A stretch of 35,306 nt of DNA from Candidatus Brocadiia bacterium (GTDB lineage: Bacteria > Planctomycetota > Brocadiia > SM23-32). Below are positions 16,183 to 28,646 of the stretch, one piece after another. The DNA lies in NCBI GenBank assembly GCA_046483865.1, contig JAWOCH010000314.1:1-35306 (forward strand), written 5' to 3'. How positions within the stretch are numbered: the stretch's first letter is position 1; each line of letters begins with the position of its first letter. The position numbers and the translations under genes were made by a program. The notes under the pieces are model-generated. The model searched no databases, was not told the origin of the DNA, and saw only the letters and a program-made list of their open reading frames with translations.

Positions 16183-17292
16183 ATGAGGATCCCCGACCAG
16201 AAAGACATCAGCGGATGCGCCATCTCGGGCCTTATGTCCGAGGAGGGCCGCCTGTTGGGCGGGGACCTCATCATCCGCTCCATCGCCGTGATGCACGAGC
16301 GGTCCAACGGGCTGGGCGGCGGCTTCGCGGGATACGGCATCTACCCCGAACATGAAGAGGACTACGCCCTGCACGTCATGTGCGACGACGAGCCGTCCCG
16401 CCGTCGGGCCGAGGAACTGATAGAGACCCGCTGCACCGTCCGCCACGATGAACCGATCCCCCACCGGCCCGTGCGCGCCATACGCGGGCGCCCGATGCTG
16501 CACCGGTGGTTCGTGCGGGTGAAGCCCGGCCTGCTGCGCCGCAACTACGACATGGACGAGGACGACCTGATCGTGGCCATGGTGATGCAGATCAACGCCG
16601 AGGTGGACGGGGCGTTCGTCTTCTCAAGCGGCCGGAACATGGGCGTGTTCAAGGGCGTCGGGTTCCCGGAGGACATCGGCGAGTTCTTCCGCCTGGAAGA
16701 GTACAGGGCGTGGGGATGGATCGCCCACGGCCGCTTCCCCACCAACACCACCGGTTGGTGGGGCGGCGCGCACCCGTTCGGCCTTCTGGACTGGGCCGTG
16801 GTGCACAACGGGGAGATCAGCTCCTACGGCATCAACCGCCGCTACCTGGCCAACTTCGGATACCACTGCACGCTGCAGACGGACACCGAGGTGATCGCCT
16901 ATCTGTTCGACCTTCTGATCCGCAAGCACGCCCTGCCGGTGGAGATAGCATGTCAGGCGCTGGCGCCGCCTTTCTGGGAACAGATTGGCCGCCGCCAGGG
17001 ACCGGAGGCCGAACTGGCCGCCGCCCTGCGCATTGTCTACGGCGGCGCGCTGCTGAACGGACCGTTCTCCGTAGTCGTCGGTCACAGTGGCGGTTTGATC
17101 GCGTTCAATGACCGCGTCAAGCTCCGCCCGATGGTCGCCGCGCGGCAGGATGACATGCTGCACGTGGCAAGCGAGGAGGCGGCGGTCCGCGCCGTCTGCC
17201 CGGAGCCGGACAAGCTCTGGCACGCCCGCGGCGGCGTGCCCATCGTCGGCGAACTCAAAGGCGCGCCCACCGGCGCCGCAGTGGGGGCATGA
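16183..17292 (+). CDS. Class II (Ntn) glutamine amidotransferase; split glutamate synthase domain 1
   Basis: 369 aa. SGCAISG nucleophile region sits after a short propeptide. Also NGLGGGFAGYGIYP, AHGRFPTNT and HNGEISSYG. It starts 14 nt after the glnA stop. Confidence 0.75.
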   Translation: MRIPDQKDISGCAISGLMSEEGRLLGGDLIIRSIAVMHERSNGLGGGFAGYGIYPEHEEDYALHVMCDDEPSRRRAEELIETRCTVRHDEPIPHRPVRAIRGRPMLHRWFVRVKPGLLRRNYDMDEDDLIVAMVMQINAEVDGAFVFSSGRNMGVFKGVGFPEDIGEFFRLEEYRAWGWIAHGRFPTNTTGWWGGAHPFGLLDWAVVHNGEISSYGINRRYLANFGYHCTLQTDTEVIAYLFDLLIRKHALPVEIACQALAPPFWEQIGRRQGPEAELAAALRIVYGGALLNGPFSVVVGHSGGLIAFNDRVKLRPMVAARQDDMLHVASEEAAVRAVCPEPDKLWHARGGVPIVGELKGAPTGAAVGA

Positions 17293-17298
17293 ACACAG

Positions 17299-18867
17299 AT
17301 GGCTACTGAAACCAAACAGGAAACCGAACAGCGGAGGCCGGAGCCGTTCCAGCCACGCAAATGGCTGGTCGAACCGGACTTCGTCGTCGAGCGCGATCCC
17401 GAGCGCTGCATCCAGTGCCAGGTCTGCGTCCGCCAGTGCGCCAACGACGTGCATCAGTACGACCCGGACGCAGACGCGGTGCACAGCGACAGCAGTACCT
17501 GTGTGGGCTGCCACCGGTGCGCAACGCTCTGCCCCACCGGCGCGGTGTCCATCCGGCGCTCGGAGCTGGAGTTCCGCCCCCACGGCAACTGGACGGCGGA
17601 CGCCCTGCGCAATATCTACCGCCAGGCCGAGACCGGCGGCGTGCTGCTGGCCGGCATGGGCAACGACCGGCCGCACCCCGTCTACTGGGACCGCCTGCTG
17701 CTGAACGCCAGCCAGGTGACCAACCCCTCGATTGACCCCCTGCGCGAGCCGATGGAGCTGACCACGCACCTGGGGCGCAAGCCGGACAGCGTGCGCATCC
17801 GCTGGGAAAACGGAGCGCCCCGGCTGGACACCCGGCTGGCCCCCCAGCTCAAGCTGGACACGCCCGTGATGTTCAGCGCCATGTCCTACGGCTCCATCAG
17901 CTACAACGCCTCGATGGCCCTGGCTCAGGCCGCATACGAGGCGGGCACGTTCGCCAACAGCGGCGAGGGCGGCCTGCACAGCGACATCCGCCCCTACGGT
18001 GACAACATGATCGTGCAGGTCGCCTCCGGACGGTTCGGTGTGGACACGGAGTATCTGAACTGCGCCGCCGCCGTGGAGATCAAGATCGGCCAGGGCGCCA
18101 AACCGGGCATCGGCGGGCACCTGCCGGGGGAGAAGGTGGACGCCGCCGTCAGCGCCACGCGCATGATACCGGAGGGCACCGACGCCCTGTCCCCTGCCCC
18201 ACACCACGACATCTACAGCATCGAGGACCTGCGCCAGCTCATATACGCCATCAAGGAGGCCACCCGCTACAGCAAGCCGGTCGCCGTCAAGATAGCCGCC
18301 GTCCATAACGTCGCCGCCATCGCCAGCGGCTGCGTGCGCGCCGGGGCGGACATCGTGGCCCTGGACGGCTACCGCGGCGGCACCGGGGCGGCCCCCACCA
18401 TGATCCGCAACAACGTCGGCATCCCCATCGAGTTCGCGCTGGCCGCAGTGGACTCGCGCCTCCGCGAGGAGGGCATCCGGAACCAGGCGTCTATCGTCGC
18501 GGCCGGCGGCATCAGGTGCAGCGCGGACGTGGTGAAGGCGGTTGCGCTGGGGGCGGACGCCGTCTACATCGCCACCGCCGCCCTGGTGGCCATGGGCTGC
18601 CACCTGTGCCAGAAGTGCTATACCGGCAAGTGCAACTGGGGCATCGCCACACAGGACCCATACCTGACCCGGCGGCTCAACCCGAAGGTCGCCACTCGGC
18701 GGCTGGTTGCGCTCTTGCGGGCATGGTCACTGGAGATCAAGGAGATGATGGGCGGCATGGGCATCAACGCCATCGAGAGCCTGCGCGGCAACCGCGAGCA
18801 CCTGCGCGGCGTCGGGCTGACCGATCGTGAACTGAACACGCTCGACGTCAAAGCGGCGGGAGAGTGA
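17299..18867 (+). CDS. Glutamate synthase FMN-binding domain protein (GltB domain 2) with N-terminal 2x[4Fe-4S] ferredoxin module
   Basis: CIQCQVCVRQC and CVGCHRCATLCP, then the glutamate synthase core NSGEGG, GQGAKPGIGGHLPG and SPAPHHDIYSIEDL. Confidence 0.85.
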   Translation: MATETKQETEQRRPEPFQPRKWLVEPDFVVERDPERCIQCQVCVRQCANDVHQYDPDADAVHSDSSTCVGCHRCATLCPTGAVSIRRSELEFRPHGNWTADALRNIYRQAETGGVLLAGMGNDRPHPVYWDRLLLNASQVTNPSIDPLREPMELTTHLGRKPDSVRIRWENGAPRLDTRLAPQLKLDTPVMFSAMSYGSISYNASMALAQAAYEAGTFANSGEGGLHSDIRPYGDNMIVQVASGRFGVDTEYLNCAAAVEIKIGQGAKPGIGGHLPGEKVDAAVSATRMIPEGTDALSPAPHHDIYSIEDLRQLIYAIKEATRYSKPVAVKIAAVHNVAAIASGCVRAGADIVALDGYRGGTGAAPTMIRNNVGIPIEFALAAVDSRLREEGIRNQASIVAAGGIRCSADVVKAVALGADAVYIATAALVAMGCHLCQKCYTGKCNWGIATQDPYLTRRLNPKVATRRLVALLRAWSLEIKEMMGGMGINAIESLRGNREHLRGVGLTDRELNTLDVKAAGE

Positions 18868-18871
18868 CGCC

Positions 18872-19315
18872 ATGAAGCGCATCGTAGCATACGAGCAGTA
18901 CTGCATCGGCTGCCGGCTGTGCGAGATCCACTGCCTGGTGCAGCACTCGGAGTCCCGGAAGATCATCAAGGCGTTCCGCGAGGAGCGGGACCGCATCATG
19001 CCCGGTGTCCACGTGGAGGAATCGGGCTGCGTCTCATTCGCCCTCCAGTGCCGACACTGCGAGGAGGCCGTCTGCATCGAAGCGTGCATGACGGGCGCGA
19101 TGCACCGTGACAAGGAGACGGGCGCCGTCCTGTGCGACCAGGACCGCTGCGTGGGTTGCTGGATGTGCGTAATGGTCTGCCCGGCCGGAGCCATCCGGCG
19201 GGGGACCGATCGCCAGGTGGCCTCCAAGTGCGACCTGTGCATCGGCGAGGAGTATCCGGCCTGCGTTGCGAACTGCCCCAACGAGGCCATTGCCCTCGAG
19301 GAGAGCCGTGGATAG
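18872..19315 (+). CDS. 4Fe-4S dicluster ferredoxin-domain protein
   Basis: 147 aa with CIGCRLCEIHC, CRHCEEAVCIEAC, CVGCWMCVMVCP and CDLC...CVANCP. Confidence 0.8.
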   Translation: MKRIVAYEQYCIGCRLCEIHCLVQHSESRKIIKAFREERDRIMPGVHVEESGCVSFALQCRHCEEAVCIEACMTGAMHRDKETGAVLCDQDRCVGCWMCVMVCPAGAIRRGTDRQVASKCDLCIGEEYPACVANCPNEAIALEESRG

Positions 19316-20597
19316 AGCCCACTACATGATCATCGGCAACTCGGTGGCCGCTGTGGCCGCGGTGGCCGGCATCCGTGTTCATGACCGGAGCCGGCCCATC
19401 ACCATGCTGGCGCGGGAGCCAAGGCACACGTACTCCCGTCCGCTCATCTCCTACCTGCTGGCCGGGAGGGTTGATGAGAACCAGATGTTCTACCGCGGCC
19501 CAACCTTCTACGAGGACAACTGCGCCGAGGCGCGGCTGGGCGTTGAGATCGTCCACGTGGACCCGCTGGGCCGGACGGTGGAAACCGCCGGCGGACAGGA
19601 GCTTGGCTTCGAGCGGCTCCTCATTGCCACCGGCGGCTCGCCCGTCGTGCCGCCCGCTCTGGACGGCGCACAGGCCGACGGCGTGTTCACCTTCACCACA
19701 TGGGACGACGCCGAGGCCGTCAGGTACTACATCCAAAACCAGGGCGTGGAACGGGCCGTCGTGGTCGGCGCGGGGCTGATCGGCATCAAGGCCCTTGAGG
19801 CCCTGGTCGCGATGGGACTGGACGTGACCGTGGTCGAACTGGCTGATCAGGTTCTGAGCACCGCCCTGGACCGCACAGCCGGCGAGCTGACCCGCCAACA
19901 GATGGAAAGGGCCGGCGTTGATGTACGCACGGGCACCACGATCTCCCGCATTGAGACGATCCGCGGCGCCGTGAGCGGAGCCGTCCTGCGGGACGGGCAG
20001 AGGGTAAAGTGCGGTATGGTCATCCTTGCCATCGGCGTGCGCCCCAACACGGCGCTGGTTGCGGACACGGCTATCGAGCTGGACAGGGGCATCCTGGCCG
20101 ACCACACGATGCAGACGAGCGTCGAGGGCATCTACGCCGCCGGCGACGTGGCGCAGGCGCCGGACCTGCTGGCTGCCGGGCGCAGTTGCATCCCCATCTT
20201 CCCGGATGCCTACCGCCAGGGGGTTGTCGCCGGACGCAACATGGCCGGAGGCGATGCCACTTACGACGGCGGCGTCGCCATGAACTCCGTTGACGTATTC
20301 GGGCTGCCAACCATCTCGGTGGGCGTCACCGTCCCGGGCGACGGGGACTGCGAGACACTGTGCGAACTCGATCGAGAGGCGGGCACCTACCGGAAGGTGG
20401 TTCTGCGGGGGAACCGCGTGGTCGGCGCCGTTTTCGTGGGCAGCATCGACCGGGCAGGCATCATCACCGGGCTGATCCGCGGCCGGGTGGACGTGAACAG
20501 CGTGAAGGACCTGCTGTTGACCGATCAGTTCGGCCTCTTGTCTCTGCCGCAGGAATACCGCAAGCACGTAGTCTCCGGCGCAGGGATTGAGGTATGA
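19308..20597 (+). CDS. FAD-dependent pyridine nucleotide-disulfide oxidoreductase (NAD(P)H oxidase-like electron-input subunit)
   Basis: Rossmann motifs YMIIGNSVAAVAAV and AVVVGAGLIGIKALEAL, plus AAGDVA. Start is either GTG 19308 (GGAG 4 nt upstream, 8-nt overlap with the ferredoxin gene) or ATG 19326. Confidence 0.8.
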   Translation: MDRAHYMIIGNSVAAVAAVAGIRVHDRSRPITMLAREPRHTYSRPLISYLLAGRVDENQMFYRGPTFYEDNCAEARLGVEIVHVDPLGRTVETAGGQELGFERLLIATGGSPVVPPALDGAQADGVFTFTTWDDAEAVRYYIQNQGVERAVVVGAGLIGIKALEALVAMGLDVTVVELADQVLSTALDRTAGELTRQQMERAGVDVRTGTTISRIETIRGAVSGAVLRDGQRVKCGMVILAIGVRPNTALVADTAIELDRGILADHTMQTSVEGIYAAGDVAQAPDLLAAGRSCIPIFPDAYRQGVVAGRNMAGGDATYDGGVAMNSVDVFGLPTISVGVTVPGDGDCETLCELDREAGTYRKVVLRGNRVVGAVFVGSIDRAGIITGLIRGRVDVNSVKDLLLTDQFGLLSLPQEYRKHVVSGAGIEV

Positions 20598-21325
20598 GGA
20601 TAGATGCGACGGACATCCACTACCGCCAGCTCAACGAGCAGATCCGCGTTGCGCTCACAAACGGCGCGGACTCGGTCGAGCTGGACCATGTGCTGGGCCA
20701 GCGCTACATAGGCGCCGGACTGGGCGGACAGGGCCGCATCACCGTCAACGGCACGCCCGGCAATGACCTGGGGGCGTTCATGGACGGCGCTGAACTCGTC
20801 GTGCGGGGCAATGCCCAGGATGGCGTGGGGAACACCATGGGCAGCGGGCGGATCGTCATCCATGGCGACGCAGGCGACATCGTGGGCTACTCGATGCGCG
20901 GCGGGCGCGTGCTGGTGCGCGGCAGCGTAGGCTACCGGGCCGGCATCCACATGAAGGCGTATCGCGGCCGCTTCCCCGTCCTGGTCATCGGCGGCAGCGC
21001 CGGCGACTACCTTGGGGAGTACATGGCGGGAGGCGTTCTTGTGGTACTCGGCCTGGACGACGGCGACCGCTCGCAGGTCGGCGAGTGGGTCGGCACAGGC
21101 ATGCACGGAGGCGCCATCTACGTGCGCGGCCCGCTGGAGCAGCACCAGACCGGAGCCGAGGTGGGCATCGGCCCCGTCGAGGACGCCGACGCGCAGATGC
21201 TGGCCGGGATCATAGAGGACTTCCGCGAGACGTTCGGCCTGGGGGAGTTCGCCTTCCGCCCGGGGGAGTTCCGCCGCCTGTTCCCCCAAAGCGCCCGGCC
21301 CTATGGGAACCTGTACGCTTACTGA
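20594..21325 (+). CDS. GXGXG-motif protein (glutamate synthase alpha-subunit C-terminal domain 3-like)
   Basis: Repetitive beta-helix GXGXG segments (VNGTPGNDLGAFMDGAELVVRGNAQDGVGNTMGSGRIVIHGDAGD...). ATGA start/stop overlap with the upstream gene. Confidence 0.8.
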   Translation: MRIDATDIHYRQLNEQIRVALTNGADSVELDHVLGQRYIGAGLGGQGRITVNGTPGNDLGAFMDGAELVVRGNAQDGVGNTMGSGRIVIHGDAGDIVGYSMRGGRVLVRGSVGYRAGIHMKAYRGRFPVLVIGGSAGDYLGEYMAGGVLVVLGLDDGDRSQVGEWVGTGMHGGAIYVRGPLEQHQTGAEVGIGPVEDADAQMLAGIIEDFRETFGLGEFAFRPGEFRRLFPQSARPYGNLYAY

Positions 21326-25624: not shown

Positions 25625-25700
25625 GGGGACGTAGCTCAGCTGGGAGAGCGCGGCACTCGCACTGCCGAGGTCGAGGGTTCGAATCCCTTCGTCTCCACCA
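25625..25700 (+). tRNA. tRNA-Ala (anticodon CGC)
   Basis: 76-nt cloverleaf folded by hand. Acceptor GGGGACG/CGTCTCC carries the G3:U70 alanine identity pair. D arm GCTC-AGCTGGGA-GAGC. Anticodon arm CGGCA-CTCGCAC-TGCCG. T arm GAGGG-TTCGAAT-CCCTT. CCA is encoded. Confidence 0.95.
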
Positions 25701-25853
25701 CCTTCCCAAGCCCTGCGCCCCCTGGCGGAAGTGTCCGTCACCTCCCCGGAGTCCGGATAGACGGTCTTGGTCACCCTGTTGGGGTGTTTGGCGGCGCCGT
25801 AGTAGTAGCTGGTGTCCTGGTGATTCGAGCCGTCTTCCCACGCCTGGATGGAT

Positions 25854-27227
25854 TCACTCCAACCGCCCCCGCCGGAGCGGATCAATCAGTGTGAAGGTGA
25901 TGTCACCGTCCGTCCCCGAAGCTCCGCCGTTGTCAGTGAGATCCCCTCCTATGCTGTATATGACCATGCCCGTCGGCGTACTGCGGTACGAAACGGGTCC
26001 GCCGCTGAAAGGGTCTTGGGGTTCGGCGTCCAGGTACGCGGGCACTAGTTCAGCAACGGACTCAGGCCAACTCCCGTGTCGAAGCCGGTACCTCTCGGCA
26101 GCCACCGCTGCTGCGCCAACTCTCAGCCGCGCTACCACATGCACTCGAGTTGTCACAATTCCGGCAAGTTCCGCCTGCATCCAGGGGGGGCGCCAGTCAC
26201 GGGAAAGCTCGGTAGCCCAAGTGAGCTGCTCCCGCAACGGACGCTTCAACACGCGCAACGCCTCCGCAATAGCCCGAATCTCCTTCGCAAGCCGCATCTT
26301 CCCCACACCGGGAAGCCTTCTCTCCCACCATACACGACGCGCCCACCTGCTCTCCACTGGTGAGGAAAGTGCTTTGGTAAGCTGTTCTATGCGCTCTTGC
26401 GAGCTGGATAGTCCGTGCGGGCCAGCCCAATCTCTGGCGATGCTCCAGAGCGTACTTCGGGGCGAAGTCCAGGCCTCCGCTATCGCTAGGCAGCGTGCCA
26501 GAGCACTAAGCACTTGCGGCTCAAGCTCGGCACGGCCCAACGTTTCCTCCAACAGGGCGAAAGCATCGAACACGCTATTTGTGGTGCCCAGTACGTATGT
26601 GGCCGGCGCCCCTGCGTAAGCCTGACCACAGTTGAGCAGTGCGATAACGCCTTCACCCGTAATGCTCTGCTCAGGCGACGCTTGCTGCGCCAATTCCAGC
26701 CAGCGAATCCGGTAGAAGAGGGGGCCAGCTCCGCGGACAAGGGTCTCCACGAGTGGCCGTACCTCCTCGCCGGCGAATACGTTTTCGCTCCCGTCAGACG
26801 AACCAACACACTCCCCGTAGAACGGCTGGAGCAACAGCCGTAGCACACGATGCTTTTGCCGGTACTCCAGTAGCGCGTGAGCCGCGTCAACCGGAATTGC
26901 ACGCCCAACAGCGCGGAGCCCGGCGGTTTCTGGCACTCTCAGTTCTGATCCGCTCTCTCCCTCCAGCCACGCCATCGCAGCCGCGGCTGCCAGGCGCCTG
27001 CCGGCGTCCACCTCAGTTCCGATGGGCCTCACAGTCCGCCCGTGCTTGGGAGTGAGACGCTCGATCCGCTCACGCGCCTCCTGGAGACGAGAGTCTCCTA
27101 CGTAGCCTAGAACCACTAAGAACACGAGGAGGCATAGAGCGAGGACCGCCAGGACGTAACCGATCCCCGGCACAGCGTAGAGCAGCAGCCGCCGAGTCGC
27201 CCATTTCTGCGTCTTCCTGTCTCCCAC
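25854..27227 (-). CDS. Hypothetical membrane-anchored protein (457 aa) with pseudopilin GspG-like C-terminal motif; candidate Rhs-tip immunity/partner protein
   Basis: GTG start lies 8 nt after a GGAGGA that directly abuts the TAG stop of the Rhs tip (TAGGAGGAAGGGGCTGTG). There is an N-terminal TM helix (LLLYAVPGIGYVLAVLALCLLVFLVVLGYV). The C-terminus reads WPESVAELVPAYLDAEPQDPFSGGPVSYRSTPTGMVIYSIGGDLTDNGG. Confidence 0.65.
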   Translation of the reverse strand: MGDRKTQKWATRRLLLYAVPGIGYVLAVLALCLLVFLVVLGYVGDSRLQEARERIERLTPKHGRTVRPIGTEVDAGRRLAAAAAMAWLEGESGSELRVPETAGLRAVGRAIPVDAAHALLEYRQKHRVLRLLLQPFYGECVGSSDGSENVFAGEEVRPLVETLVRGAGPLFYRIRWLELAQQASPEQSITGEGVIALLNCGQAYAGAPATYVLGTTNSVFDAFALLEETLGRAELEPQVLSALARCLAIAEAWTSPRSTLWSIARDWAGPHGLSSSQERIEQLTKALSSPVESRWARRVWWERRLPGVGKMRLAKEIRAIAEALRVLKRPLREQLTWATELSRDWRPPWMQAELAGIVTTRVHVVARLRVGAAAVAAERYRLRHGSWPESVAELVPAYLDAEPQDPFSGGPVSYRSTPTGMVIYSIGGDLTDNGGASGTDGDITFTLIDPLRRGRLE

Positions 27228-27239
27228 AGCCCCTTCCTC

Positions 27240-27932
27240 CTAGGGATCACAGTCTAGCGGATTCCCCATCATTATCCCCTTAGTGGCGCCTTTGGCAGGC
27301 ATGTTATTATTCTTGCACTCAGCCTCGATGACCCCCACGTCATGCTCTTGCGCTCCAGCACCGATGTTCAAGTTGGTACAACCGGTGAAGGGCCCTGGTA
27401 TTGTTATACTGCTGTCCGGTCTGAAGTTCTTCCAGCCTATCAGTTTCTTCTTTCTGGCCACAGAATTGTTGGTCCACGCCTGAAACGGTCTGCCATCGCA
27501 GCAGCACTGCCAACGAAATGCCCCCTCACCCGCGAACACGCATACAGCCACACCGTGTATGGCCATGCCCAATCCAACGCTTTCAACCCCCACTGCGTGC
27601 AGTCGCCACTGGATATTCGCCCAGATGAGGCGGCAGCCCCTGCTCTTACAGGCTGCCAAGCCCAAGGGGTCTCGGCTGAAACTTGGACGCCCTTTCACGT
27701 ACTGGTACACATTCACGCCATCGGCGTATCGCGCGGGATCGCCGGAGACAAAGCGGCCAACGGTCACTGAGTACTGACGATTGCGGTAGTACATGAGGTC
27801 GGATTCGAGATCGAGGCGTCTCGCGGTGAAGGCGTAGGGGTTCTCTACGTCCGAGACTCCGTCCGAGTCGTCGGAGCCGTCGCCGTCCAGGACGGTGGCG
27901 GCGCCATACGCGTCATGCCGATAGCGTTCCAC
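27240..27932 (-). CDS. RHS-repeat-associated core plus novel C-terminal toxin-like domain (5'-truncated orphan Rhs tip)
   Basis: Rhs core hallmarks: YRHDAYG, NPYAFTARRLDLESDLMYYRNRQY, GRFVSGDP and NVYQYVKGRPSFSRDPLGL. A 138-aa Cys-rich tail follows (27243-27656). The same frame stays open upstream of the GTG as far as 28034 (..DRDGDLADTNEKVWYHSNTLHSVYALTDNSESVV..). No Rhs N-terminal body is present. Confidence 0.8.
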   Translation of the reverse strand: MERYRHDAYGAATVLDGDGSDDSDGVSDVENPYAFTARRLDLESDLMYYRNRQYSVTVGRFVSGDPARYADGVNVYQYVKGRPSFSRDPLGLAACKSRGCRLIWANIQWRLHAVGVESVGLGMAIHGVAVCVFAGEGAFRWQCCCDGRPFQAWTNNSVARKKKLIGWKNFRPDSSITIPGPFTGCTNLNIGAGAQEHDVGVIEAECKNNNMPAKGATKGIMMGNPLDCDP

Positions 27933-27981
27933 GACCGACTCCGAGTTGTCGGTGAGGGCGTATACCGAGTGCAGCGTGTTG

Positions 27982-28551
27982 CTATGATACCATACTTTCT
28001 CGTTCGTGTCGGCCAGATCCCCGTCGCGATCGTGTCAAGAGTGTTGTGTAAAAGGGGGCTGGAGGGCTTCGGCGCGCTGTGCGGCCGTAGCGCTGCTGTT
28101 GTAGCTTCCGCCAGACCAGGTAGGTGGCCCTCTCCAGGCTCCGAGCACTGGGGAAGATGCCCACCTTGCGGATCTTTTTGCTCAGCTCTCCTATGAAGCG
28201 TTCGATGGGGTTGGTGGTCTTCAGCCGCGCCCGTAACTGCGTCGGGGCGTTCAGGTAGGTGAGGGTGTCCTCAAACTCGTAGCTGAATCGCCTGACGGCC
28301 TCCGGCTCGAGCTGCTCCCACCTGCGGGCCCACAGCTTCAGTCGCCGCCGCGCCTGATACGGGGTGCGCAGGCCCTCGTAGATGGCCGCCGCTTCCGAGA
28401 GGATCGCCCCCCGCCGCGAGCGGTCCCGCAGGTGATCGGCGATGTTCTGGACCTTGTGGAAGATGCAGCGCTGTCTGGGCACCCGCGGCTGGACCATCCA
28501 GAGGGCCGCCAGAAGGCCCCCATCCCCATCGGTGACGATCGTCTCCAGCAC
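27982..28551 (-). pseudogene. IS256-family (Mutator-type) transposase, N-terminally truncated remnant
   Basis: TDGDGGLLAAL...QRCIFHKVQNI...TTNPIERFIGELSKKIRKVGIFPS matches the C-terminal half of IS256-family transposases. Upstream homology (..DYLTGRARYVLE) is interrupted by an in-frame TAG and runs into the TolC gene's 3' end by about 28646. About 200 N-terminal residues are missing. The last roughly 18 codons of the ORF-track ORF overlap Rhs-derived sequence. Confidence 0.75.
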
Positions 28552-28646
28552 ATAGCGGGCACGGCCGGTCAGATAATCCTACAGTCTCTGTTGACATTCG
28601 GCGCGGACGGTGCGAAGCTCGACCATCGGGGCGCCTGCCTCAGTCT

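Follow-up and report, generated by a model that had tools for sequence, protein, structure and literature searches.

Gene organization of the locus

The window analyzed here (the whole stretch of 35,306 nucleotides (nt), positions 1 to 35,306 of contig JAWOCH010000314.1 in assembly GCA_046483865.1, from a Candidatus Brocadiia bacterium) contains the 3′ end of an rhs gene, which encodes a cysteine-rich C-terminal (CT) domain of 138 amino acids (aa) behind the last part of an Rhs core and is followed by a gene for a 457-aa membrane protein. The locus is an orphan, 5′-truncated Rhs tip without a shell or delivery domain. The initial annotation of this DNA gave the sequence of the domain correctly, the translation of 27243–27656 being exactly its 138-aa peptide, but the strand needs correcting, as the feature lies on the minus strand. 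The features of the locus are:

27240–27242, minus strand: stop codon of the frame encoding the Cys-rich domain (translation)
27243–27656, minus strand: putative toxin domain, Cys-rich, 138 aa, C-terminal (translation, homologues P0003 and P0006, alignment A1)
27657–27671, minus strand: DPLGL motif (translation)
27657–27911, minus strand: RHS repeat-associated core domain, final ~85 aa of the Rhs core (TIGR03696)
27912–28034, minus strand: leftover in-frame Rhs-derived codons up to the upstream stop, the truncation point of rhs (translation)
27982–28551, minus strand: remnant of an IS256/Mutator-family transposase, C-terminal half only (PF00872, NF033543)
25854–27227, minus strand: downstream gene of 457 aa, putative cognate immunity protein (homologues in loci L001 and L002)
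25625–25700, plus strand: tRNA-Ala(CGC), bordering the low-GC cassette at its end opposite the insertion sequence (IS) remnant (ARAGORN, GC profile)

The Rhs core is recognized by TIGR03696 (E 1.9e-16, 60.3 bits against a cut-off of 32.5) over aa 42–126 of a 264-codon frame, and the match ends at DPLGL. The residues directly before the Cys-rich domain, ...NVYQYVKGRPSFSRDPLGL, fit the consensus PxxxxDPxGL (here PSFSRDPLGL), and a DPARY lies exactly 18 residues before DPLGL. This DPARY-(18)-DPLGL spacing matches the motif of the Rhs aspartyl autoprotease, which in Tse5 has the arrangement DPxGL-(18)-DPxGL (PMC9637101), and it marks a putative cleavage site. The frame is open only from 28034, with a stop just upstream, and its sole candidate start is a GTG at 27932, from which GenBank annotates a 230-aa "RHS repeat-associated core domain-containing protein" in this Candidatus Brocadiia metagenome-assembled genome (MAG). 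The string "EKVWYHSNTLHSVYAL" in the rhs stump agrees with the start of P0003, one of the homologues described below.

Only the last ~125 aa of the Rhs core are kept, and they abut the truncated IS256 transposase. The YD-repeat shell of ~1,000–1,300 aa is absent from the fragment, with no Rhs or YD open reading frame (ORF) elsewhere in the window, and an N-terminal delivery determinant (PAAR, VgrG-binding or signal peptide) is likewise absent from the fragment. No type VI secretion system (T6SS), PAAR or VgrG domain was found among the 25 window ORFs scanned, no secretion genes occur in the window, and no main rhs gene with which the tip could recombine lies upstream within the 35 kb, where the IS256 remnant stands instead. 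Because both shell and delivery domain are missing, a toxin encoded here could not be delivered from this locus. What had been called the Rhs core is therefore borne out by the core match and the cleavage motif, but it amounts to a stump without YD shell or N-terminal delivery domain, and the complete, deliverable Rhs toxin which that wording implied is replaced by a truncated orphan beside an IS remnant.

The remnant matches PF00872 (E 2.3e-20, profile positions 228–374 of 379) and NF033543 (E 5.1e-26, profile positions 189–334 of 338). The IS256-family transposase gene (27982–28646) is itself cut, with profile positions ~189–338 left and a TolC-like gene beginning ~95 bp farther on, which reflects either two successive rearrangements or a wrong join of the MAG assembly at a repeated IS. 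No terminal inverted repeat of the remnant was identified, and the IS fragment had no match among plasmids. At the IS/rhs junction, ~50 nt upstream of GTG 27932, there is a weak sigma-70-like site on the minus strand (27984–28012; CCGACA-17-TATCAT, extended TG, 9/12 matches), a consensus match that could drive expression of the orphan fragment. No terminator for the cassette was found.

Recurrence of the Cys-rich domain

When 1.84 billion cluster representatives were searched exhaustively with phmmer, six hits came back, among which the only true homologues besides the window protein are P0003 (E 1.5e-14), from the Planctomycetota MAG GCA_048622215.1, and P0006 (E 3.6e-6), from IMG metagenome 3300033149. 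Each is an Rhs tip at a contig end and comes from a Planctomycetota source; in both, the homologous domain directly follows DPFGL or DPAGR, and each forms a singleton cluster among ~15 billion proteins. The domain thus recurs at the C-termini of other Rhs proteins, in keeping with the toxin-like domain first proposed. The window protein and P0003 share 65% identity over the part in the Rhs core and 37% over the CT domain, a drop of the kind expected at the usual break of a polymorphic-toxin junction. Word-indexed searches of 5.8e9 proteins brought up nothing beyond the window protein for the domain alone, and nothing beyond the window protein and P0003 for a three-sequence profile; neither the CT family pattern nor tblastn turned up further members in GTDB genomes or JGI metagenomes. 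Three other hits, P0002, P0004 and P0005 (E 5e-16 to 2e-7), were rejected because they are long repeat proteins that match the word LIWANIQW in each repeat, a word specific to the window copy and not conserved in the true homologues; in P0002, ~13.8 bits per repeat are summed across 19 repeats.

Nine Cys occur in the 138 aa (positions 3, 8, 39, 51–53, 93, 114, and 136), a content of 6.5%, where twelve further genes of the window have 0.88% (binomial P = 4e-6). In the three-sequence alignment A1, seven of these are invariant (C8, C39, C51–53, C114, and C136), while C3 and C93 are not conserved in the homologues, so that the count of nine and the CCC run previously pointed out are both correct but only seven Cys belong to the family. 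The hallmark of the family is a conserved W-x-CCC-x-G motif, and the conserved Cys are dispersed, with no CxxC pairs. The residues invariant in A1 are C8, W17, G28, G30, G35, C39, G43, W49, C51–53, G55, F78, I86, P87, P89, G92, G99, G101, Q103, D106, G108, C114, P120, and C136. The invariant polar residues are Q103 and D106, and A1 has no invariant His column, which with three sequences is a weak test.

In L001 (2286–3632), an intact IS4-like DDE transposase (PF13701/PF01609) comes after the cassette of the Planctomycetota MAG, and two of the three known copies of the cassette therefore adjoin insertion sequences. In L002 (2159–3692), a string of further orphan Rhs pieces lies downstream of the P0006 toxin/partner pair: a truncated CT (DPFGL...ECRICCD...IPIPNPW) is fused to a new core fragment, and next comes a CT with KWKCCCRG (CT3), which has glycine-zipper motifs in two Gly-rich stretches (three overlapping GxxxGxxxG matches) and is followed by a small multi-transmembrane ORF of the type typical of immunity proteins to membrane toxins. 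These pieces suggest that the CCC-containing N-terminal part may be a module common to different toxin bodies. As members of the family, CT2 and CT3 of L002 were rejected, since the CCC region alone scores (a 14-residue match of 9.5 bits in CT3, about 0 in CT2), and they are treated as possible distant relatives only.

Searches for a known family or fold

Against Pfam, NCBIfam, and PADLOC, the Cys-rich domain gave nothing at E ≤ 1 except one chance match, to the profile SMAX1 NBD (E 0.03; its 14 bits fall short of the cut-off of 27). The profile search against known toxin families (Ntox/Tox-*, HNH, deaminase, ADP-ribosyltransferase, and peptidases) covered all five CT sequences, with this chance match as its sole result, and the nuclease, deaminase, and ADP-ribosyltransferase profiles did not match the domain even at E ≤ 1. 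Similarly, phmmer and a profile search with the domain against all PDB sequences found nothing at E ≤ 10. AlphaFold2, run on the three-sequence alignment, gave a best model with a predicted local distance difference test (pLDDT) of 77 and a predicted TM-score (pTM) of 0.70, the other four models having a pLDDT of 43–61. The best model consists of ~20-residue strands (7–26, 35–53, and 56–78), short strands, and a helix (104–117), and a Foldseek search with the CT model had its best matches at E 0.21 (PDB) and 0.23 (BFVD), no TM-score reaching 0.3. The earlier observation that the domain bears no recognized toxin signature accordingly holds, as it belongs to no known family by sequence or by predicted fold. 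The domain is unlikely to be a known nuclease, deaminase or ADP-ribosyltransferase and, because no His is invariant, also unlikely to be a Cys-His hydrolase (papain-like, NlpC-P60 or transglutaminase-type). The best reading is that the domain is the founder of a very rare, unclassified family of putative Rhs C-terminal toxins, probably stabilized by disulfides.

The Gly/Ala/Val-rich segment, which had been likened to glycine-zipper membrane-inserting toxins, is peculiar to the window copy. Its highest 19-residue Kyte-Doolittle hydropathy is 1.75, compared with 0.87 and 0.97 in the two homologues, the aligned segment contains no GxxxGxxxG, and in the AlphaFold2 model the stretch covers a strand end, a loop, and the onset of the following strand. 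The proposed resemblance is not upheld, since the stretch is not conserved, lacks the motif, and is modeled as a beta-hairpin rather than a helix, and the domain is probably not a helical glycine-zipper pore former.

The downstream partner gene

In all three loci, the CT gene is directly followed by the gene for a homologous single-pass membrane protein of 430–495 aa, the two homologues being 31% and 25% identical to the window protein (alignment A2). The partner begins 12 nt after the toxin stop in the window, with a GTG start behind an AGGAGG Shine-Dalgarno sequence, after a gap of 0–30 nt in L001, and with an 11-nt overlap in L002. The 12-nt gap leaves no room for a small cytoplasmic immunity ORF between the toxin stop and the 457-aa gene. 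The 457-aa protein carries a transmembrane (TM) helix at its N-terminal end, then an all-helical region of low conservation, and at the C-terminus a conserved part of ~100 aa with the motif AAERYRLxxGxWP...DPFxGxPLxY...YSxGxDxxDxGG. The variable region 11–272 matches only the L001 partner (E 0.0047, collinear), that is, the partner of the closest toxin, a pattern that would be expected if this part of the partner and the toxin co-evolved. From its position, its conservation, and this co-variation, the 457-aa protein is most likely the immunity protein of the pair, and it is called putative here.

AlphaFold2 models the C-terminal part of the partner (pLDDT 80–88) as a long helix followed by a small beta-sheet. 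Its sole sequence matches are below threshold (PilE, E 0.16; PF08334, T2SSG, E 0.055, 14 bits against a cut-off of 21), and Foldseek with the whole partner model, a poor one (pLDDT 54), found nothing. In the signature A-E-R-Y-R-L-x-x-G-x-W-P ... D-P-(F/W)-x-G-x-P and in the modeled helix and sheet, the partner C-terminus is like the head of type IV pilins and of the type II secretion system (T2SS) pseudopilin GspG. Unlike pilins, the partner has no class III signal peptide (G|FTLxE), its N-terminus being MGDRKTQKWATRRLLLYAVPG..., and the head-like domain begins ~350 aa after the TM helix; as the matches are not significant, the partner is only a possible member of the group.

Among 50 members of the partner family, Lys plus Arg (K+R) average 4.22 on the N-terminal flank of the TM helix versus 2.86 on the C-terminal flank, with the N-terminal flank richer in 30 cases and the C-terminal flank in 8; by the positive-inside rule, this excess would place the N-terminus inside and the C-terminus, with the bulk of the partner, outside the cytoplasm. 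Scans located the family at 22 loci in genomes and 31 in metagenomes, where two or three paralogues often stand in tandem. Examples are found in L006 (5466–9813), L018 (8735–13228), L019 (142–4681), L040 (710–5004), L049 (2984–6507), and L038 (3–3844), where the members are ~450–650 aa long and single-pass, with a variable helical region, a pilin-like C-terminus (AERYRLxxGxWP...DPFxGxPL), and no Pfam match. The arrays run head-to-tail, with two or three divergent paralogues and overlapping stops and starts; they look like immunity-gene banks, and no toxin is seen beside them.

Proposed function and alternative explanations

The position of the domain, the pattern of the junction, and the conserved, co-varying, translationally coupled partner together make the domain the likely toxin of an Rhs toxin/immunity pair. 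With moderate confidence, the locus is read as an orphan, 5′-truncated rhs C-terminal cassette that encodes a putative Cys-rich toxin and a translationally coupled, membrane-anchored putative immunity protein. A full-length Rhs protein would hold the domain inside its YD-repeat shell, release it by a cut after DPLGL, and bring it into a neighboring cell, where the domain would act either within the periplasm or on the outer side of the cytoplasmic membrane. This extracytoplasmic action is inferred from the membrane-anchored, probably periplasm-facing partner and from the seven dispersed, conserved Cys; the resemblance of the partner C-terminal domain to pilin heads, which are extracytoplasmic, was also counted for the compartment, the matches being sub-threshold. 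After delivery, the seven conserved Cys could form disulfides, possibly three with one free thiol, and some T6SS effectors are reported to be activated by DsbA of the target cell (PMC5792426). The exposed, variable helical domain of the partner would bind and block the toxin. Action in an oxidizing compartment, as first proposed from the Cys content, thus gains indirect support from a conserved single-pass partner whose family follows the N-in/C-out positive-inside pattern. As for this copy, it would probably serve as a recombination reservoir and/or be kept mainly for its immunity gene, a logic taken from the orphan Rhs tips of Salmonella (PMC3967940, PMC3150448), and it might possibly be expressed internally, as PMC7043789 reports.

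Several points weigh against this interpretation. Toxicity and the immunity role are both putative, and the dense Cys could equally bind metal in the cytoplasm. The family has three members only, which leaves its "invariant" residues weakly defined, and no full-length Rhs protein with the domain is seen because both homologous loci run off contig ends. The predicted fold is uncertain, one of the five AlphaFold models being reasonably confident. In the three Rhs-linked partner copies alone, the K+R counts are tied across the TM helix. In addition, the C-terminal domain of the partner defines a broad, unannotated family in bacteria of the Planctomycetota-Verrucomicrobiota-Chlamydiota (PVC) superphylum (Planctomycetota and some Verrucomicrobiota), no Rhs tip or CT homologue was found near 53 further loci of this family, and the three Rhs-linked partners did not cluster as a clade in a neighbor-joining tree of the C-terminal domain (noisy, 100 columns); for these reasons, the partner may have a role other than immunity.

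The compartment is the point at which one alternative departs, namely that the toxin acts in the cytoplasm with its Cys holding a metal (Zn or Fe-S), for example as an unrecognized enzyme that targets nucleic acids or nucleotides, and that the membrane partner is not an immunity protein or faces the cytoplasm. The cytoplasm is where most characterized toxins at Rhs C-termini act (general background; survey in PMC3482391), a metal cluster would also be compatible with seven conserved Cys in 138 aa, the three linked partners are individually ambiguous in topology, and the weak Foldseek neighbors are oligonucleotide/oligosaccharide-binding (OB)-fold binders of single-stranded DNA (PriB and SSB, E at least 0.2, TM-scores below 0.3). 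The explanation is nevertheless unlikely, as the Cys are dispersed without CxxC pairs or a conserved His, nuclease, deaminase, and ADP-ribosyltransferase profiles fail to match even at E ≤ 1, the 12-nt gap before the 457-aa gene holds no small cytoplasmic immunity ORF, and the topology of the partner at the family level is N-in/C-out. The model of the initial annotation, in which a glycine-zipper pore former like Tse5-CT inserts into and depolarizes the cytoplasmic membrane of the target, is improbable: the 19-residue stretch with a mean hydropathy of 1.75 in the window copy falls to 0.87 and 0.97 in homologues that contain R, P, and Q there, it has no GxxxGxxxG, AlphaFold gives a strand end, a loop, and a strand start, and the partner is a 457-aa single-pass protein and not a small polytopic immunity protein. 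A pore former borne by Rhs is known (Tse5-CT; PMC9637101), and this model is kept alive mainly by CT3 of L002, in which W-K-CCC-R-G occurs together with GxxxGxxxG in two Gly-rich stretches and a small multi-transmembrane ORF follows, but that link is a 14-residue match of 9.5 bits.

A different kind of alternative concerns whether the peptide is made at all. The fragment could be a dead relic, a decaying pseudogene left by an IS-mediated deletion or an assembly chimera formed at the IS, in which case only the downstream envelope-family gene would matter to the cell. The N-terminal ~90% of the Rhs protein is gone, the neighboring transposase is truncated as well, the only promoter-like site is weak (9/12 matches) with no terminator, and the partner family is widespread without Rhs. 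This is nonetheless quite unlikely, given that the 264-codon frame is intact with every family-invariant residue present, that toxin and partner genes stay tightly paired in three divergent loci, and that both reactivation by recombination and internal expression are known for orphan Rhs tips (PMC3967940, PMC7043789); moreover, it bears on the state of this copy and not on the function of the domain family. Beyond the toxin/immunity cassette favored here, a more far-reaching proposal would make the domain a Planctomycetota-specific toxin with a new fold, directed against an envelope structure specific to PVC bacteria, with an immunity protein recruited from a large PVC family whose single-pass members combine a variable helical region with a pilin-like head, and with the tandem arrays acting as a general bank of immunity or defense proteins against toxins of this sort; it is a speculative idea with little probability.

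Comparison with known systems

The cassette resembles the orphan rhs-CT/rhsI modules of Salmonella Typhimurium, Dickeya, and E. coli (PMC3967940, PMC3150448, PMC7043789), in which a 5′-truncated rhs keeps part of the core together with the PxxxxDPxGL motif, and a variable toxin domain and then a closely linked gene come next, the GC content being below that of the surroundings and mobile-element debris lying nearby. It differs from these modules in that no main rhs lies upstream in the window, where the IS256 remnant and a TolC-like efflux gene are found instead, in that the toxin domain and its partner have no relatives among the described modules, and in that the partner is large (457 aa) and membrane-anchored, whereas theirs is small and cytoplasmic.

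Tse5 (RhsP1)-CT/Tsi5 of Pseudomonas aeruginosa (PMC9637101, PMC10684867) shares with it a C-terminal domain of ~140–150 aa after DPxGL-(18)-DPxGL, no predicted enzymatic activity, and a membrane-located partner. As an Rhs-encapsulated pore-forming toxin, Tse5-CT is the best precedent for an Rhs toxin without a cytoplasmic target, but the domain described here has no sequence similarity to it, lacks conserved transmembrane or glycine-zipper segments, and is predicted to be mostly beta, and its 457-aa single-pass partner is unlike Tsi5, which has two predicted TM regions. The same holds for glycine-zipper or helical depolarizing toxins in general (Tse5-CT, EsxX-CT, and ionophoric CdiA-CT), from which it is set apart by the lack of a conserved GxxxGxxxG segment and of a small polytopic immunity protein. 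With the disulfide- or DsbA-dependent T6SS effectors, including Ssp2 and Ssp4 of Serratia (PMC5792426) and Tse1 (PMC12302283), the domain has in common its conserved Cys, which would meet an oxidizing periplasm. As far as those accounts describe them, however, these effectors are peptidoglycan hydrolases or have other defined folds and none is Rhs-borne, while the present domain has no conserved catalytic Cys-His pair and its dependence on disulfides is putative.

An orphan Rhs C-terminal toxin/immunity cassette is a well-known system, and unknown C-terminal domains on Rhs proteins are common; what is extremely rare and unclassified is the domain itself. New antibacterial activities are known to come from Rhs tips, and a domain without a detectable toxin relative could disclose a way of killing, or a target in the unusual envelope of planctomycetes, that is new. 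In practice its importance is limited: three copies of the family are known, and this one is an undeliverable, truncated orphan. The partner family may be more widely useful, comprising widespread, unannotated PVC membrane proteins with a pilin-like head, often in tandem arrays.

Base composition and genomic setting

The cassette forms a lower-GC island of ~2.9 kb bounded by the tRNA gene and the IS remnant. The GC content is 55.8% in the Cys-rich domain versus 66.5% in the window, and the GC content at third codon positions (GC3) is 0.65–0.67 for the CT and partner genes versus 0.75–0.84 for their neighbors (window 25625–28600). The fall in GC noted at the outset for two 60-base lines was confirmed on recounting (31/60 and 29/60). 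The lower GC and GC3 between tRNA-Ala(CGC) and the IS remnant are consistent with horizontal acquisition at a tRNA-flanked spot; att-like direct repeats and inverted repeats, looked for around the island and at the end of the IS, gave chance-level matches only.

Upstream of the IS256 remnant, the TolC-like gene is part of a MacAB-type efflux operon, and on the other flank, beyond the 457-aa gene, there follow tRNA-Ala(CGC), rubrerythrin, OsmC, and pyrF. The remainder of the window consists of housekeeping genes, including those for an ammonium transporter, glutamine synthetase, glutamate synthase, and CofD. Four adjoining genes at 16183–21325 look like an archaeal-type split glutamate synthase: they encode a GATase_2 domain protein, a Glu_synthase protein with two 4Fe-4S motifs, a pyridine-nucleotide-disulphide oxidoreductase, and a 243-aa ORF, and they lie beside the glutamine synthetase and ammonium transporter genes in an ordinary nitrogen-assimilation context.

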